Below are positions 12,891 to 56,630 of a DNA stretch of 64,000 nt, piece after piece (within the stretch, counting starts at the first letter, position 1; each line of letters begins with the position of its first letter). This DNA is from a virus. Its lineage: Duplodnaviria; Caudoviricetes. The position numbers were made by a program, and so were the translations under genes. The stretch spans positions 28,754 through 92,753 of the IMG/VR virus record IMGVR_UViG_3300014039_000311; one strand, given 5' to 3'. The notes beneath the pieces were generated by a model. That model was not told the origin of the DNA. It was given only the letters and a program-made list of their open reading frames with translations, and made no database searches.

Positions 12891-14396
12891 TTACGAAATG
12901 TATTTTGAATTAGTATAGGTATATTCGATAAAACCGCAATCCCATATTCGGTAATAATCATTATCTTTTCTGTTAATTAACGTTATAATTTCAGTTTTAT
13001 TTATCCTTTTTCCATGACCATTAGTATATGTATAGTCAACATCGAGTACTTTATTGAAAATAAACCCGTTCTTAGTATATAAATTATTATCCTTATCGTA
13101 TTCCCATCTTCGGTCAATAAAAGCTTTTATGCTCTTGCAATTATATTCGTTGGTAAAAAATTTTATTATCTTTGAAAAGGTATCTTGAACTGTGTAATGG
13201 ATATCGTTAGCAAACCTATCAAGTATCCATTCTTCATCATGACGCCTACTGAGTGATATTACACTCATTAATTTTTCCTGATAAAACGCTCCTAAATGGA
13301 TATCTGCGTCGCAATAACCTTGAATATTGTTATAATTCATAAATTTTTCTGCCTCATCATTTCTAAGCTCTCTGATACTGCATTCTCTCGTCTCAATTTT
13401 AGGTAATGATTTATCAAGTTCTAGTAAACGACTTATCTTACTAAACAAGGCTTCTTTATGAAAGATATACTCGTCCTCGAAAATATGAAATAATTTAATT
13501 CCTTTCTCTTCACATTTATTCTTCTTGGAAAGGTGGTAGTATTTATCTTTATTAAACTGCTCAGAATGCCATCGTAGTCCATTATATTCAAATGCAATAT
13601 GCTTCTGAGGCAAATAAATATCGAGTTCCTTTCCATCGAGAATAGAATGATTTCTTCGTTCGATTGATAAGTCAGATTTACCCTTGATGAAGTCAACAAT
13701 TTCGTCTTCGGCATCCGATCTATGATTACCACATTTAGGGCATCCTTTTCCTTGTAATAATGCATCTGGACAAATTTGAAATTCTCCATGCTTTATACCC
13801 TTATTGTTACACTTATTGCATATTAAGGTAATCTTTGTTTGACTTGATATATATTTAACTTTGCTAAAGTCAAGCCACTCACAATCGGATATTTTCTTAA
13901 GCTTATCAATAAACGTCTCAGTCGTATAGGTCTGCGATTTTATCTGCCTTTGTCTTCCAATTTCAGGATGGGTGCCGCCTTTCAAATGCACGATAGGCTC
14001 CTGCCAAAAGACCCCATACTCTGTACCATCTGGACGTAAATCGTGTGAAATTATCTTGACTTTGATGTGCATACCTTTATATTCAACTTCAGAATAATCT
14101 AAATTTTCTCCTTTGTGTACCTCCTTAAATCTTTTAATTATTTTGTCTCGTGAAAATAGCTTGCCTTTTGATATACGTAACCCTTTTTTATCAGGATGAC
14201 ATTGTCCCTTTAAATGGTTCGACGGTGTTTGCCAAAACTCACCGTATTCGACACCATTTGGGCTCTTGTCGTGATCTATTATTTTTACTGGTGTACGATT
14301 ATTAATATATTCAACTTCAGAATAATCTAAATTTTCTCCTTTGTGAATATGCTTTGCCTTTAAAATAAAGTTATTTTTTAATATATTTCTATCCAT
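12891..14396 (-). CDS. Hef-like homing endonuclease (repeat DNA-binding units + PD-(D/E)xK/Vsr-like nuclease + GNAT-like tail)
   Basis: ELDIYLP...AFEYNGLRWH, IFEDE; tail RFA...DRRW...IWDCG; immediately downstream of capsid gene. Confidence 0.7.
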   Translation of the reverse strand: MDRNILKNNFILKAKHIHKGENLDYSEVEYINNRTPVKIIDHDKSPNGVEYGEFWQTPSNHLKGQCHPDKKGLRISKGKLFSRDKIIKRFKEVHKGENLDYSEVEYKGMHIKVKIISHDLRPDGTEYGVFWQEPIVHLKGGTHPEIGRQRQIKSQTYTTETFIDKLKKISDCEWLDFSKVKYISSQTKITLICNKCNNKGIKHGEFQICPDALLQGKGCPKCGNHRSDAEDEIVDFIKGKSDLSIERRNHSILDGKELDIYLPQKHIAFEYNGLRWHSEQFNKDKYYHLSKKNKCEEKGIKLFHIFEDEYIFHKEALFSKISRLLELDKSLPKIETRECSIRELRNDEAEKFMNYNNIQGYCDADIHLGAFYQEKLMSVISLSRRHDEEWILDRFANDIHYTVQDTFSKIIKFFTNEYNCKSIKAFIDRRWEYDKDNNLYTKNGFIFNKVLDVDYTYTNGHGKRINKTEIITLINRKDNDYYRIWDCGFIEYTYTNSKYIS

Positions 14397-14537: not shown

Positions 14538-16475
14538 TTATCTCAATTCATTAGGGTTCCAATAAACCAAACCGTCGACCTTTATTGCTCCATAGTATCT
14601 ATTATTTACTAACTTCTTGGCATAACGGGTACATATACCCTTTACAGGTGCGAAGTTAAATGGATTATACATTGTAGGTGTTAATGCCATCGGAATATAT
14701 GGGGCATATATGTAGCCAGTGTCGAGCAAGCTTGTACCGTGGTGTCCCATAATCAGTGACCAATGAGGTGCGTATGGGTCGACAATCACCTGATAACGTC
14801 CTTGCAAAGAACCAATCTTCTCAATACCCATATTGTATTGGTCACTCTCGGCAGATGCATCTGTCACGTGGAAATACTCAAGGTCATTCAACACAGCAGA
14901 AATCTCAGCAGAAACTACGATGAAGTTTGCACCACCACGTAATGTAGCCTTCTGGATCTGTGCAGAAATTTGGTTAATCTTAGTCATCAAAGTCTGGTTC
15001 CAATCCTTCTGTGTATAGACAGTCGATGTGGTAGCCAAACGTTGCCATCCGTTATAGTCCCAACGTGCTTGCCAAGGAGCTGCCTTACGTAAATCACGAA
15101 GAATCTCACGGTCAATCTCGGCTGCGATTTGCTCAGAAAGGATTGCTGTCAACTCAGCTTCGGCATCGATATTATGGAAAGCGGACACGTCTTGTGCAAG
15201 TTCAGGTGACCAAGTAGCTCTCAACTTTCTTTCCTCGACAGATACTGTTTCTGAAGTAAGTTGGAATGAAACCTCACCCATCTCAGTCTCCAATTCGAGC
15301 GAATCGTACTGTGCCCAAGCAATCTGGAATAACTCGTCGGCCAACAATGCGTTATCATCATCCTTGTCAGTCAAGTCAGCGACCTTTGTAGGATCGATAC
15401 CGATATAACCATTAATTGTCTTACCTTGTTTCTTGCAAGGCTTTGTCAAGTCAAGTTCGATATACATCTTACCCTTGCCATCACAAATGTTTGCCTTACC
15501 CTTATCGTCGTTATAATTAACCAACTGGTCACCATACTTCTGAGTTACGAAACGGAAAGGAATTGATTCACCTTTTTTGAACGATGTGAAATCATCACCA
15601 CCATCAATATCTTTTGTAACAATAACCTTCATTGAAGCTGTAAATGCTTCGCTATCCATTTCATTACCGTCAGGACCGGTCAAACGACCTGCATTATAAG
15701 AAGAGAAACCTCCTACTTGAAGCAAAAGGCTGCTCAAAGAGTTATCCATGCTATTCAAAGGCAAATGTGCCACATCCTCTACTGAATGATAAGCACCATC
15801 TGCACCGATTTCAACGACACTTGCAGTACCTACCTTAATAGTTACACGACCTTTAGAGTTGTCGAACAAGAAATCATTGTAGAACAAGTCGTACAAAGTC
15901 TTCTTCATATAGGTTGTAACCTTTGGTGTTGTGTGATCCTTGTCAGTCTGTACTGGTTCTACAACCTCATCAGGGAGACCATAACGACCGTATGATTCGA
16001 ATGAACGTCTTGTCTTATCATTGGCATCGAAACTAGAACCATCATAGAAACGGTTTTGTCTCTGATAACCTTGGAGACCTACGTGGCGTCCAGTATCACC
16101 GTCTGTAATCTTAGTAGCGTCTTTGAAATCCCAATCTCTCTCTGATGTAACAGGCTTGATGAAGAACAACTTTCCGATAGGAAGGTTCATTGCCTGTACT
16201 GATACGATGTCGTTTGCAAGCAATTTTGAGAACACACGACGAATAAGAGGGAATACAACTGTCTCGAATGAACCTGAGTTATCAGCGGTAGTTGCCTCGT
16301 AAATCAAGTGTTTAGCCTGACTTTCGTAAAGAGTTGCGATACTCTCCTTAATATGTCCTTGCAAACCGTCGAGAAGACCAAGGTTTTCCCAACGTTTCTG
16401 AATATCTTCTCTGATTTTCTTTTGTGCGTTGAGTTCAATGTTGCCAACCGCACCACTAGTTAATAATTCACGCAT
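14538..16475 (-). CDS. major capsid protein, T4 gp23-like
   Basis: VSVQAMNLPIG.LF, RKLRATWSPELAQD, AEAELTAILSEQIAAEIDREI, YAPYIP, TRYA motifs. Confidence 0.95.
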   Translation of the reverse strand: MRELLTSGAVGNIELNAQKKIREDIQKRWENLGLLDGLQGHIKESIATLYESQAKHLIYEATTADNSGSFETVVFPLIRRVFSKLLANDIVSVQAMNLPIGKLFFIKPVTSERDWDFKDATKITDGDTGRHVGLQGYQRQNRFYDGSSFDANDKTRRSFESYGRYGLPDEVVEPVQTDKDHTTPKVTTYMKKTLYDLFYNDFLFDNSKGRVTIKVGTASVVEIGADGAYHSVEDVAHLPLNSMDNSLSSLLLQVGGFSSYNAGRLTGPDGNEMDSEAFTASMKVIVTKDIDGGDDFTSFKKGESIPFRFVTQKYGDQLVNYNDDKGKANICDGKGKMYIELDLTKPCKKQGKTINGYIGIDPTKVADLTDKDDDNALLADELFQIAWAQYDSLELETEMGEVSFQLTSETVSVEERKLRATWSPELAQDVSAFHNIDAEAELTAILSEQIAAEIDREILRDLRKAAPWQARWDYNGWQRLATTSTVYTQKDWNQTLMTKINQISAQIQKATLRGGANFIVVSAEISAVLNDLEYFHVTDASAESDQYNMGIEKIGSLQGRYQVIVDPYAPHWSLIMGHHGTSLLDTGYIYAPYIPMALTPTMYNPFNFAPVKGICTRYAKKLVNNRYYGAIKVDGLVYWNPNELR

Positions 16476-50773: not shown

Positions 50774-50845
50774 CGAGGGGATTTGTAGTGCTTGCACCTC
50801 GATAAAAACGCTAAAAATCTATTTTCAAAGACAGATTCCACTACA
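50774..50845 (+). ncRNA. SAM-II riboswitch (long-loop, Bacteroidota-type) in metK 5' UTR
   Basis: P1 cgagg/cctcg; conserved GAUUU, UUGC, AUAAA and GCUAAA elements; pseudoknot tgtagtg (50784-50790)/cactaca (50839-50845); inserted hairpin aatct/agatt; directly upstream of metK. Confidence 0.8.
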
Positions 50846-50885: not shown

Positions 50886-52070
50886 ATGTGTAAAAAAATT
50901 ATTACAAGTGAATTTGTAAGCTGTGGTCATCCTGACAAAATTGCTGATACCATCGCCGATAGCCTATTGGATGCATACCTCAAGGGCGATAAGAATACTC
51001 GTGCAGGTATCGAGGTAATGGTTAAGGATAATATTGTTGTTCTTGGAGGTGAGGTGTCATCAAATGCTGTTATTAACTATGATACAATTGTTCGTTCAGT
51101 GTTTAAGGACTTGTGCTTCCCTTCAAATCACCATCTTCAGCCTGAGAATATTAAGATTATTAACCTTATAGGAAAGCAGTCATCGGAGATTCATAATGGT
51201 GTGGATAAGAGTGATGAGATTATTGGTGCTGGTGATCAAGGTTTTGTCGTGGGTTTTGCCTCTGATGATACTGATGTATATATGCCTTTGGGACACTATT
51301 TGGCAAAGGAGATTTGCCAATGGGTCGCAGAACAGAGAGATAAGGGTCTTGGTCCTGACACTAAATCGCAAGTAATTATCGAACATGATGGATACGAGAA
51401 CAAGGTTAAGTACATCCTTGTGTCAACGATGCATGATAAGAATGTCGACGTTGAGACGGTTAGAAATACTGTGAAAGAAGCTATATTCAGTAACGCCGTC
51501 AGCATAGATAATAAAACATTTGATAAATACCTCAAGGGAAGAGAGAGCGATATTGAAGTCGCAGTCAATCCATGTGGTGCTTGGCATATAGGTGGCCCAA
51601 TATCTGATTGTGGCGTTACTGGCAGAAAACTTGTAGTTGATCAATATGGAGGCTATTCCAACATAGGTGGAGGTGCCTTTGGGGGCAAGGAATATACTAA
51701 GGTTGACCGTTCTGCTGCTTATATGGCAAGGTATATTGCCAAGAATATCGTTGCATCTGGTATTGCAAAGACGGCCAAAGTCGAATTGTCATATGTGATT
51801 GGTGTACCTGAACCATCATCGGTGAATATCGAACTTGGAAGCGCAATCGAGAGTGTTAATATTGAAGCCCTTAAAAAGTGGATACAAAAGAAAGTCAATT
51901 TGACTCCTTATGGTATAATGACAAAGTTCGATTATTCGTTCCCACGTAATCAATTTAACGAAATTTATGGATTTTATGGTGTTGACGTGAATGAAAATAA
52001 AGATTTGGAAAGTTTTTATCCTTGGGAAAAGATCGATTTGGCAGATGAAATCGCCAAAGAATTTAAGTAA
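50886..52070 (+). CDS. metK: S-adenosylmethionine synthetase
   Basis: SEFVSCGHPDKIAD, GAGDQG, DCGVTGRKLVVDQYGG, GGGAFGGKEYTKVDRSAAY. Confidence 0.95.
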   Translation: MCKKIITSEFVSCGHPDKIADTIADSLLDAYLKGDKNTRAGIEVMVKDNIVVLGGEVSSNAVINYDTIVRSVFKDLCFPSNHHLQPENIKIINLIGKQSSEIHNGVDKSDEIIGAGDQGFVVGFASDDTDVYMPLGHYLAKEICQWVAEQRDKGLGPDTKSQVIIEHDGYENKVKYILVSTMHDKNVDVETVRNTVKEAIFSNAVSIDNKTFDKYLKGRESDIEVAVNPCGAWHIGGPISDCGVTGRKLVVDQYGGYSNIGGGAFGGKEYTKVDRSAAYMARYIAKNIVASGIAKTAKVELSYVIGVPEPSSVNIELGSAIESVNIEALKKWIQKKVNLTPYGIMTKFDYSFPRNQFNEIYGFYGVDVNENKDLESFYPWEKIDLADEIAKEFK

Positions 52071-52089
52071 AATAAATTGAATAAAATAA

Positions 52090-52125
52090 TATATGACGGG
52101 CAAGGTTTGTTCGTTATATATTTAT
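52090..52125 (+). terminator. metK terminator hairpin overlapping a TATTTAT late promoter (52119-52125)
   Basis: atatgacgggcaa-ggt-ttgttcgttatat stem with G-U pairs, then T-rich tract. Confidence 0.55.
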
Positions 52126-52148: not shown

Positions 52149-52907
52149 ATGACTAATAAAGAAATAAACGAATATGCTTTCTTCAAAAAAGGGTTAAGAC
52201 TAATAAACGAGGCAGGAATTAATCGTATACTTAGTCATGGTAAATATGGTTTTATAATAATTTCAGCAAACCGTAGTGAAATTTCAAGCAGTAATCCTCA
52301 TAATGATTTGACTGGAAAATACGAACAGTGGTGTAATGAAAATAAAATTGATAACCCGTCAGATTTCGAGGTAATGAAGCAATGGCTTTCACAGCGTAAT
52401 AAACAAGCTGAAGCCGATTTAAAGGATGAATTGAAGAAATCTCCATTCGCATATACCCCGGTATTCGGAGGTTATCACGGAAGTGATGATGTTACTGATA
52501 GCTTTGAGCCGTCATACATTGTATACTGTCACGGTAAACATTATGCGACCGACTATTATCCATTCGAGAAATTGTTCAAATTCGCATTACATTTGTGTAA
52601 TGAATATCAGCAAGACAGCGTTTATATTCAAGCGCCTGACGAAGCTCCTATATGGGTTAACGGAGAAGGTGTAAAAATAAACAAAACGTCCACTAAAAAA
52701 TTTAAAATAAATGACTTCTCACAAACATATTATACAACTGTAAATAGAAGTAAACGAGATACCAAGGAAATGGGTCTTGACACTAAGCCACAAAGATTCA
52801 CGGCAGATATTCAGTTTGAAAGTAAAATGTATACTGTACCGGGTCCAAGTACTTACTTTGATAGAATGAAAAGAGAAACACTCGGAGAGGTATTTTTAAA
52901 TAATTAA
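52149..52907 (+). CDS. SAM lyase-like protein (T3 gp0.3 SAMase/DUF3293-like) with IxE leader
   Basis: FIIISANR, GGYHG, FEPSYIV, LCNEYQQDSVYI parallel the recalled T3 SAMase motifs VSAFR, GCYRE, EEKTV, CNEWEQDCVLV. Confidence 0.6.
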   Translation: MTNKEINEYAFFKKGLRLINEAGINRILSHGKYGFIIISANRSEISSSNPHNDLTGKYEQWCNENKIDNPSDFEVMKQWLSQRNKQAEADLKDELKKSPFAYTPVFGGYHGSDDVTDSFEPSYIVYCHGKHYATDYYPFEKLFKFALHLCNEYQQDSVYIQAPDEAPIWVNGEGVKINKTSTKKFKINDFSQTYYTTVNRSKRDTKEMGLDTKPQRFTADIQFESKMYTVPGPSTYFDRMKRETLGEVFLNN

Positions 52908-52930: not shown

Positions 52931-53773
52931 ATGGCAACTATATTAAACGAAAATAAGCTAAAGAGTATCATCCGTGAAAGTATTAACAAAATGCTCAATG
53001 AAAGTACCCTTAACCGCATCGAAGAATATATCAAGAATGAGGAATGCGCAATAATAACAGCGTGGCGAGACACATTACAAAATGTGACAAAAGAAACCTT
53101 TACACCTAAACACATTACTCACGAAAAAGGGCATCGAGGAAACAAGATTGTAACTGATGCAATGTTTAATGTCGGTGACAAATTTAGTACCGAAGAAAAA
53201 AAGTTTTATAATCGTGAATTAAAGGCTAAGTTACTTAAATATGGTTATGGCGTAACGCAGGTTCGAGGCACATACCGTGAAAGTGGCATCGAAGGGCAAG
53301 AAGAATCCTTATTTGTCGTCAATCGTAATAATGACCCTAATTTCAAGGATGTCTTATTTAAACTTTCTGAATATTATAATCAAGATTCTTTCTTGTATTC
53401 GCCAAAAGGAACAACAGAGGGTTATTTGATAGGGACTAATACATATGATTATCCTGGTTATAAGAATACTGTTCGCAGTGGACAATTTCGTAAAAATATA
53501 CAATCGATGTTTATGAGTCGAATAGGTAATAAAGGCTTCAGCTTTACTGATGGTAAAGAAATAGATAAGACTGATCCTGATAGGTTTAATAAATTGGATA
53601 ATGGCGACAATAATTATGAAATCGATAAACCCATGACATTCAAAGATAGAAAGCAAGAACGAATAAAAGGACTTAGTAATGAAAGTATTGAACGTTTATT
53701 GCGTATAGAAACTTATGAAGCGGCATCAATCAATGGCAAACATGCTATCTGCATATGTGCAAGAGGTCTATAA
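52931..53773 (+). CDS. second SAM lyase-like paralog with LxE leader
   Basis: IITAWR, GTYRE, QEESLFV, SEYYNQDSFLY; leader MATILNENKLKSIIRESINKMLNE. Confidence 0.6.
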   Translation: MATILNENKLKSIIRESINKMLNESTLNRIEEYIKNEECAIITAWRDTLQNVTKETFTPKHITHEKGHRGNKIVTDAMFNVGDKFSTEEKKFYNRELKAKLLKYGYGVTQVRGTYRESGIEGQEESLFVVNRNNDPNFKDVLFKLSEYYNQDSFLYSPKGTTEGYLIGTNTYDYPGYKNTVRSGQFRKNIQSMFMSRIGNKGFSFTDGKEIDKTDPDRFNKLDNGDNNYEIDKPMTFKDRKQERIKGLSNESIERLLRIETYEAASINGKHAICICARGL

Positions 53774-54838: not shown

Positions 54839-55831
54839 ATGACTGCAAGAAAAACTACGAGGCAATTTATCTTAGAGGCAAAAAAAGTACATGGAAATAA
54901 GTATAATTATTCAAAGACAAAATATATTAACGCAAAAGTCAAAGTCTGTATTATATGCCCCGAACACGGAGAATTTTGGCAGACACCGTATAAACATTTA
55001 AATGGGCACGGATGCCACAAATGCTGTAAGACCGGTATTAAGTACACCACAAAAGAATTTAAAGATAAAGTGAATGAGATACATAATGGAGAGATATATG
55101 TCGCTAATGACGCACTCTATGTTAATTCTCACACGAATATAAAAATGATATGCCCTAAACATGGTGAATTTTGGACGAAGCCTAATTACATTCTTAGTCG
55201 TCATGGCTGTCCGAAATGTGGTATTAAAAAGGTAAAGGAGAAAATGAGTTTCACAATTGAAGACTTTATTAAAAAGGCTAAAGGCATTCATAAAGACGAA
55301 TATGATTATCAATTAAGTGAATACAATGGATACGATATGCCTATTAAGATTATTTGTCACAAAGCAGATAAAAATGGAAAAGAGCACGGAGTATTTTTAC
55401 AGTCACCGCATTCACATTTATCAGGGCATGGCTGTCCTTTATGTAAAATGAGCAATTTGGAACGGAAAATATATTGCTTATTAAAAGAATATAATATAAA
55501 ATTTGAATATGAGAAAAATTTTAAATGGTTAGGCTTACAGACATTAGACTTTTACCTACCTGATTATAATGTCGCTATTGAATGTCAAGGGATACAACAT
55601 TTTGAACCTTGCAATTTCGGCAGTACTATAAAAACGCCTCAAGAAATGTTTGATTATGTAAGGGAATGCGATAATAGAAAATATAAATTATGTAACGAAA
55701 ATGGTGTAAGATTGTTATATTACAAACAAGGTAAATTACCTTCATGGGTGATAAATGCAGATGAATATTATTCGAATAAAAAAAGATTAATTAAATCAAT
55801 AATAACAAATGGAAAATATAAAGATATTTAA
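54839..55831 (+). CDS. free-standing endonuclease (3 zinc-ribbon repeats + Vsr/DUF559-like domain)
   Basis: CPEHGEFWQTP..HL.GHGC repeats; TLDFYLPDYNVAIECQGIQH. Confidence 0.75.
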   Translation: MTARKTTRQFILEAKKVHGNKYNYSKTKYINAKVKVCIICPEHGEFWQTPYKHLNGHGCHKCCKTGIKYTTKEFKDKVNEIHNGEIYVANDALYVNSHTNIKMICPKHGEFWTKPNYILSRHGCPKCGIKKVKEKMSFTIEDFIKKAKGIHKDEYDYQLSEYNGYDMPIKIICHKADKNGKEHGVFLQSPHSHLSGHGCPLCKMSNLERKIYCLLKEYNIKFEYEKNFKWLGLQTLDFYLPDYNVAIECQGIQHFEPCNFGSTIKTPQEMFDYVRECDNRKYKLCNENGVRLLYYKQGKLPSWVINADEYYSNKKRLIKSIITNGKYKDI

Positions 55832-56630
55832 TGAAGATTGTAGAGAAACTATGAGGAGGCTTAAGTTAAATAACGTAAAAGTCGACCTTACTGTAACTTC
55901 GCCTCCATATGATGATTTGAGAACTTATAATAATTCATCTGAATGGAATTTTGACATTTTTAAACAAGTAGCTCAAGGATTATGGGATATTACTTCGGAT
56001 GGTGGCGTAGTTGTGTGGGTCGTTGGTGATGCAACCATTAATGGTAGTGAAACTGGTACTTCTTTCAAACAAGCCCTCTACTTTATGGAACTTGGCTTCA
56101 AATTACACGATACTATGCTGTATGAAAAAAATAGCTCATCGTTTCCGTCCTCAAGAAAAAGTAAACGTTACACTCAAATTTTTGAATATATGTTTGTGTT
56201 CGTCAAAGGTAAAATAAGAACTTGTAATCTTATCTGCGACAAACCTAATAAATGGGCAGGACATACCAATTGGGGAAATAATACACAATATAATAAGGAC
56301 GGTGAGTTAATACCAACGAACAATATTAAACCAGTTCCAGATTTTTCACCACGTAACAACATATGGAAATATACCGTAGGCTTTAATGTTAATGAAGGTA
56401 AACATCCTGCGGTTTTCCCATATAAATTGGCGGAAGACCATATATTGACTTGGAGTAATGAAGGTGATACAATCTTTGATCCATTTATGGGCAGTGGTAC
56501 AACAGGCTTTGCTGCCATTCATAACAATAGGAAATTTATTGGCTGCGAAATAGATAGAACGTATTTTGATGCCTTCGAACAGAATTATAAGAAATATCAA
56601 AAAAGGTGGGAAAAGGAGACTACTAATTGA
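55809..56630 (+). CDS. DNA amino-methyltransferase (N4C/N6A, beta class)
   Basis: TSPPY motif IV before DPFMGSGTT motif I; HPAVFP. Confidence 0.9.
   Translation: MENIKIFNEDCRETMRRLKLNNVKVDLTVTSPPYDDLRTYNNSSEWNFDIFKQVAQGLWDITSDGGVVVWVVGDATINGSETGTSFKQALYFMELGFKLHDTMLYEKNSSSFPSSRKSKRYTQIFEYMFVFVKGKIRTCNLICDKPNKWAGHTNWGNNTQYNKDGELIPTNNIKPVPDFSPRNNIWKYTVGFNVNEGKHPAVFPYKLAEDHILTWSNEGDTIFDPFMGSGTTGFAAIHNNRKFIGCEIDRTYFDAFEQNYKKYQKRWEKETTN

Follow-up and report, generated by a model that had tools for sequence, protein, structure and literature searches.

A candidate SAM-II-class riboswitch with a junction hairpin upstream of metK in a clade of jumbo phages

The leader of the metK gene found in the window (the whole stretch of viral DNA analyzed, 64,000 nt long) is very probably a SAM-II-class aptamer, and a putative SAM sensor encoded by a phage. 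All the elements of a SAM-II core can be read directly from the letters between positions 50774 and 50845, on the + strand as all the features of the leader. P1 is a 5-bp helix, set by the alignment to the Rfam family RF01726, in which CGAGG (50774-78) pairs with CCUCG (50797-801). Its loop holds the L1 sequence GAUUU (50780-84), the heptamer UGUAGUG (50784-90), which makes the 5' strand of P2a, and CUUGCA (50791-96), the 5' strand of P2b. Downstream of P1 are found an A-rich L3 of 8 nt (AUAAAAAC, 50802-09) and GCUAAA (50810-15), the 3' strand of P2b, and the complementarity UUGC/GCUAAA expected for this helix is present. A hairpin (50816-37) with a 5-bp stem (AAUCU, 50816-20, paired with AGAUU, 50833-37) and a 12-nt loop is inserted between the 3' strands of P2b and P2a. 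The P2a 3' strand, CACUACA (50839-45), is the distal partner of the pseudoknot and matches the loop heptamer at 7/7 Watson-Crick positions; the loop of the window ranks first (percentile 0.000) among 256 UGNNNNG loops for complementarity to the distal strand. A preliminary description of this DNA had quoted P1, GAUUU, UUGC, AUAAA and GCUAAA as core elements, and a 7-bp partner, cactaca, beyond an inserted hairpin. All of the former were found in place, and the latter can pair with the loop heptamer at every position.

No family reached its gathering score in an Rfam scan of the whole window. In a sensitive local search RF01726 was aligned over its full length (1-60 of 60), scoring 34.0 bits vs. 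a gathering score of 44, with E = 5.7e-5 in a 301-nt search and E = 4.1e-6 over the 92.7-kb record; the RF00521 model scored 18.4 bits. The Infernal check suggested in the preliminary description gave a mixed answer, the full-length RF01726 alignment being significant, the score remaining under the gathering threshold. By both E values a significant covariance-model hit does exist, contrary to the outcome that the preliminary description had named as refuting. The alignment to RF01726 takes in GAUUU, (C/A)UUGC, the A-rich L3 and GCUAAA, elements that vary little or not at all among relatives. Since the conserved sequences of the binding core are intact, SAM is the expected ligand, and we infer that the aptamer of the window may bind it. 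The earlier proposal that a phage-encoded riboswitch of the SAM-II class makes up the metK leader is supported by the full-length RF01726 alignment, by the phage genes carried by the window, and by the conservation and covariation described below.

Conservation and covariation in phage relatives

Relatives were gathered by MetK-based and pattern-based searches in IMG/VR, in metagenome contigs, and in contigs encoding MetK homologues. About 15 distinct phage leaders, residing in contigs up to 373 kb long and representing at least 12 lineages, were found among the matches listed. The MetK of the window is 54-86% identical to the proteins of its phage-clade relatives, and 34-41% identical to MetK proteins of cellular Bacteroidales, figures indicating that the RNA was kept through the deep divergence of a phage-specific gene lineage. 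Leaders of relatives score 32-41 bits with RF01726, and only L425 exceeds the gathering score (48.2 bits). L422 scores 35.4 bits with RF00521, whose gathering score is 36.

MAFFT alignments (A1 and A2) were out of register for P1 and for the hairpins, and covariance-model alignments were used instead. The structural alignment consists of nine rows, and was obtained with a covariance model built from the window sequence; leaders that could not be threaded by this model were read by hand. In the nine-row alignment, once the pseudoknot is included, 98.0% of the cells pair, vs. 52% at most in any slid register, and four pairs feature double-sided changes. On four of five measures the observed values were reached in 0/500 shuffles; a five-row version was also run.

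Compensatory changes were found in all four helices (P1, P2b, the inserted hairpin and the 7-bp P2a) across at least 12 lineages. All the cells (100%) are paired in P1, the first pair being C-G, A-U or G-C in different rows, and the helix is wholly different in L001 and L009 (AGAGAG/CUCUCU) and in L054 (AAAGGAG/CUCCUUU). P2b features a single compensatory change, CUUGU/ACUAAA in L423 vs. CUUGC/GCUAAA (C-G to U-A), the other pairs being invariant, and as such uninformative. The hairpin was found in 14 of the 15 phage leaders dissected, and is missing in L425. Its stems vary (AAUCU/AGAUU, AAUCC/GGAUU, AUUCU/GGGAU, and forms of 10-13 bp), and double-sided changes were observed at two of the five pairs. 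Three positions of the 7-bp P2a helix differ on both strands between lineages, with compensatory changes in L095, L054, L001, L423 and L425. By hand, loop and partner were read as UGUGAUG and CAUCAUA in L054, UGUGGUG and CACCuug in L001 and L009, UUGGUG and CACCGA in L423, UGUAGCG and CGCUACA in L425. The distal P2a strand falls at percentile 0.01 or lower in 10 of 12 lineages.

The changes in four helices over so many lineages, the persistence of the element through the deep divergence of the phage-specific MetK clade, and the E value obtained per record make it very improbable that the similarity is accidental, or that the window carries a degenerating remnant acquired along with a host metK and functionless in the phage, as the score of 34 bits, below the gathering value, and the phage metK genes which lack the element (L003, L006, L421 and L426) might suggest.

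Additional phage variants did not emerge from more pattern searches across viral contigs. Motif-like leader matches in viral contigs encoding relatives of the L425 MetK (34-40% identical) were judged not to be aptamers, because they share bases with the start codon and with a GAGG that resembles a Shine-Dalgarno site. A leader with the phage-type layout, in which the hairpin AAUCC/GGAUU is followed by UACCAC, was found in a 56-kb viral contig (L095:2209-2290, - strand) in front of a cellular-type MetK, 36% identical to that of the window. In a 373-kb viral contig (L008:1434-1513) a metK gene 54% identical to that of the window follows a compact, SAM-II/V-like leader (AGAGG..GAUUU..UUGCUGCCUCU..CGCUAAAAUUC), which stops about 8 nt short of the AUG. 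Rfam gave no report at E <= 1 for this sequence, and the window-derived model scored 21.8 bits; if real, the putative compact leader would be an OFF switch acting by direct occlusion. A GC-rich core of the proteobacterial type, similar to SAM-II and having CCCGG/CCGGG as P1, resides 5' of a gene in the viral contigs L385 and L401.

The inserted hairpin and known SAM-II systems

In L425 the 7-bp partner lies one nucleotide after GCUAAA, no hairpin being interposed, and both the strand and its flank are recognisably homologous to the distal strand of the window. The RF00521 consensus assigns the stretch between GAUUUG and CUUGCA to the 5' strand of P2a, and places a 6-bp P2a directly after GCUAAA and 2 nt, as in L425. 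The adjacent, homologous partner of L425 and the RF00521 consensus together indicate that the distal heptamer of the window corresponds to P2a, and that the hairpin has been inserted into the 3' strand, at the P2b/P2a junction.

The preliminary description had assigned the element to the architecture of the long-loop variant. In the 2010 long-loop alignment two sites, the P1 loop and L3, carry the long and usually structured inserts (Weinberg et al. 2010, PMC2864571). Beyond GCUAAA the same alignment extends for just 8-9 nt, its only annotated pseudoknot is a 4-bp P2b, and the text only says that long insertions are possible (PMC2864571). In the window the P1 loop is uninserted, L3 is only 8 nt long, and the insert follows GCUAAA, so that the assignment has to be dropped. 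Since the published long inserts lie elsewhere, the junction-hairpin aptamer of this jumbo-phage clade appears to be a new variant of SAM-II, as judged from sequence comparisons.

Like RF01726 members, the element features P1, GAUUU, (C/A)UUGCA, an A-rich L3 and GCUAAA, and is located 5' of metK, next to a Bacteroidota promoter. It differs from them in the score (34 vs. 44 bits), in the shorter P1-L1 spacer and L3, and in the insert after GCUAAA; moreover, P2a is present in the window and unannotated in RF01726, and the genome is that of a phage (PMC2864571). Classical SAM-II (RF00521, found in alpha-proteobacterial metX and metA leaders) and SAM-V belong to the same class of H-type pseudoknots as the window element. 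In classical SAM-II the 3' strand of P2 overlaps the Shine-Dalgarno site, and SAM turns translation off. Unlike in classical SAM-II, the AUG in the window is 40 nt downstream, and P2a supplies what resembles an anti-start strand; the host group, in contrast to the classical SAM-II setting, largely lacks Shine-Dalgarno sites.

Distal partners were also monitored in about 150 cellular metK leaders, comparing the real loop with 256 alternative loops for complementarity to the tail. In cellular Bacteroidales a distal complement occurs unevenly and fails to reach significance when loop types are compared (binomial p = 0.24), the phage type ranking first; on this ground the hypothesis that a distal partner is general in these bacteria was discarded. 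Only the Bacteroides lineage with UGAGUAG loops repeatedly features a distal complement (CUACUC[AU]), separated by loosely structured spacers. CUACUC[AU] lies 20-49 nt after GCUAAA in 17/26 Bacteroides-type leaders with this loop (L252, L295, L318, L327, L329 and L352 are examples), in a region that the Rfam/2010 model does not include.

Pairing of the start codon and direction of control

The AUG of metK (50886-88) lies 40 nt 3' of the aptamer, on the same strand. No intrinsic terminator was detected by a consensus scan between the aptamer and the AUG of the window, and termination of this kind was discarded as the expression platform; most relatives also lack an intrinsic terminator before the AUG. 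The MFE fold, which is blind to pseudoknots, buries the AUG and reuses for this purpose four nucleotides of the P2a strand. The candidate anti-start strand (50842-54, +) is formed by these last 4 nt of P2a and by the 3' flank, and the metK translation-initiation region that it may sequester spans residues 50876-90 (+), as delimited by the MFE fold, the duplex and shuffles. Residues 50842-48 pair with 50884-90, a segment including the AUG, and residues 50850-54 with 50878-82, in a duplex of -7.3 kcal/mol; the folding tools were used without pseudoknot modelling, and the energies of the states are consequently rough.

The MFE of the leader is not significant (z = -1.25). In the window alone start pairing has p = 0.049 in flank-only shuffles, in which the heptamer and the AUG are kept fixed, and is not significant (p = 0.11-0.47) in broad or whole-module shuffles. 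In clade A, made up by eight lineages with the loop UGUAG[U/C]G and including the window, start pairing is significant over flank-only shuffles (Fisher p = 1.5e-5), and the same register, CAU paired with AUG, recurs with different flanking pairs. In clade B the arms of the inserted hairpin are complementary to the start region instead. In L054, L001 and L423, members of this clade, the dG of start pairing ranges from -13 to -18, vs. -8 to -9 for the hairpin (p = 0.001-0.012). In L095, grouped with them, no pairing with the start region was found. Cellular metK leaders, analyzed as a control, show no excess of start pairing (Fisher p = 0.20), which argues that the excess is not an artefact of the method. 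The lack of a terminator before the AUG and the pairing of the start region favor translational control, and we consider it likely, well short of certain, that the leader of the window acts on translation initiation.

A real aptamer exerting its control elsewhere, whether by termination (Rho-dependent or of another kind) or by mRNA decay, or a constitutive fold in which start pairing is incidental, would fit the weak statistics of the window taken alone, the lack of start pairing in L095, and the strong terminator-like hairpin located between aptamer and AUG in L122. This is an improbable explanation, as intrinsic terminators are missing upstream of the AUG in the window and in most relatives, the leader, with little C and much A/U, is presumably a poor Rho site, and two clades reach the start region via different segments, whereas cellular controls do not reach it at all. 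The extra hairpin of L122 (L122:420-450, in a 275-kb contig), formed by AUCCAGAAU...AUUCUGGAU and followed by a U-rich run, resides between the P2a strand and the AUG, and could be a terminator lying inside the loop of the start-sequestering helix.

The working of a translational switch may be outlined as follows. RNA would start at the host-type promoter, and its first 85 nt or so would fold as an H-type pseudoknot made up by P1, the U-rich L1, P2b (CUUGC with GCUAAA), the A-rich L3 and the 7-bp P2a, the inserted hairpin creating a three-way junction in place of the usual linker of 1-2 nt. In the absence of SAM the 3' strand of P2a and its flank would pair with the start-codon region, burying the AUG, a job that in the sister clade B would be done by the inserted hairpin. 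The SAM-bound pseudoknot would claim the shared nucleotides, and the start codon would be released. Because the same nucleotides take part in the SAM-bound fold and in the helix sequestering the AUG, SAM is predicted to free the AUG, and thus to turn metK on. The chances of an ON direction in the window are rated as nearly even, and those of the explanation as a whole (SAM-II-class aptamer, translational control and ON direction taken together) as even. The pairing scheme departs from the product-feedback control anticipated in the preliminary description, as it predicts activation by SAM rather than repression. The ON logic would also invert that of classical SAM-II, in which the 3' strand of P2 is itself the ribosome-binding site.

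Against an ON direction count the usual feedback repression of metK, which runs opposite, and the compact L008 variant, in which an aptamer abutting the AUG would be OFF by occlusion. The same aptamer may work as a conventional OFF switch, if SAM leaves the distal strand or the arms of the hairpin free to bury the start codon; this alternative deserves serious attention, without being the one we lean to. The OFF state could be reached by a kinetic strand swap, in which the P2a of the SAM-bound form is made by the nucleotides just after GCUAAA and the 7-bp helix between loop and distal strand is the anti-sequestor of the ligand-free form. From the physiology of metK feedback repression would be expected, the order of transcription favors a proximal partner, and the compact form of L008 would occlude the AUG directly. 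In the window a 4-bp proximal complement, CUAU with GUAG, is found at a roughly canonical distance, and L423 has a 6-bp one. Yet in 10 of the 11 lineages with the hairpin the proximal complement is no better than that of random loops (percentiles 0.25-0.90), L423 being the exception, and it is absent in L122 and L095. The proximal partner of the strand swap is not supported by these percentiles, to be compared with values of 0.01 or lower for the distal strand in 10 of 12 lineages. In addition, L425 has one partner only, which is homologous to the distal strand of the window and overlaps the strand pairing with the start. Lastly, the non-pseudoknot MFE fold already sequesters the AUG, which would leave a thermodynamic OFF switch without anything to repress. 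Accessibility of the start region in the apo and holo forms was discarded as evidence on the direction, being biased by construction, as locking upstream bases always frees downstream ones.

Returning to the ON scheme, it is a tentative reading, held with less confidence than its application to the window, that the clade uses a natural SAM-activated SAM-II switch, in which the P2a strand or the hairpin doubles as anti-start strand. A rationale, admittedly speculative, may be sought in the SAM-lyase-like genes located beside metK: synthesis of MetK would stop while SAM is being destroyed, a futile cycle consuming ATP and methionine would be avoided, and positive feedback would sharply restore the synthesis afterwards.

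Genomic setting and phage riboswitches

The leader is preceded by a promoter of the Bacteroidota type (50727-57, +), made up by a -33 element (TTTG, 50727-30), a 19-nt spacer and a -7 element (TAcCTTTG, 50750-57). The motif occurs 7 times in the window vs. 2.0 +/- 1.4 copies expected, a number reached in 0/100 shuffles, and several of the other copies are also located upstream of ORFs in the same strand. TAnnTTTG is found at the same place in L001, L002, L004, L054, L095, L416, L420 and L422. The preliminary description had indicated a correctly spaced promoter just upstream of the element, and TTTG-N19-TAcCTTTG, enriched as a motif in the window, corresponds to it.

The gene downstream (50886-52070, +) encodes an S-adenosylmethionine synthetase of 394 aa, featuring the three Pfam MetK domains (E from 1e-43 to 2e-24). 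A terminator-like hairpin was predicted by the consensus scan just 3' of the stop codon (52088-52122, +), and suggests that metK is transcribed alone. A metatranscriptome contig of 252 nt, from a relative about 97% identical, covers residues 50853-51100, and a contig of 163 nt covers residues 51537-51699; being contigs, they do not inform on starts, ends or levels of the transcripts. Major head, portal and large terminase genes are carried by the window. The source record is a 92.7-kb virus fragment, estimated by CheckV to be about 25% complete, which implies a jumbo phage, and the capsid protein of the window is at most 41% identical to any entry of the GenBank phage set. The head-portal-terminase cluster also contains an HNH/homing-endonuclease-like gene (12891-14396, - strand; phrog_559, 236 bits), located a short way downstream of the major head gene (14538-16475).

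Two paralogous genes found 3' of metK (52149-52907 and 52931-53773, both +) match PF23780, the S-AdoMet lyase family, with 29.5 and 42.9 bits, respectively, the cut-off being 28. In L415, L416, L417, L418, L419, L420, L423 and L424, too, the gene after metK is SAM-lyase-like or DUF3293, and a SAM maker and a likely SAM destroyer are thus syntenic clade-wide. An N6/N4 DNA methylase (55809-56630, +; PF01555, 138.8 bits), a consumer of SAM, is encoded about 3.7 kb 3' of metK.

That riboswitches are rarely reported in phages, as stated in the preliminary description, is in line with the literature. According to McCown et al. 2017 riboswitches have been rarely identified in phage genomes, c-di-GMP-I and glutamine riboswitches being the only examples, and Buchholz et al. 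2022 regard them as a rare feature in phages (PMC5473149, PMC9004378). Cases on record are c-di-GMP-I riboswitches of C. difficile prophages and, for glutamine, those of cyanophages, pelagiphages and the phage Melnitz (PMC5473149, PMC9004378). As these, the window element is, by prediction, a phage-encoded metabolite-sensing leader in front of a phage gene; the class of ligand and the fold differ. No SAM-II-class riboswitch in a phage was found in the literature searched (SAM-II in phages, phage-encoded riboswitches, huge and Jug phages), and the paper on the Jug jumbo phages mentions neither riboswitches nor metK.

To our knowledge natural SAM-activated riboswitches are rare, and the switch of the window would be one of them, if the ON logic is true. 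The element extends the SAM-II architecture by a hairpin at the P2b/P2a junction, and is a candidate example of riboswitch control of translation in hosts mostly devoid of Shine-Dalgarno sites. A clade of phages of roughly 200-400 kb keeps this predicted switch ahead of a SAM synthetase gene that is the phages' own and has diverged deeply. Its location before a phage metK, beside SAM-lyase-like genes and a DNA methylase, suggests that the phage itself manages the methyl-donor pool of the host.
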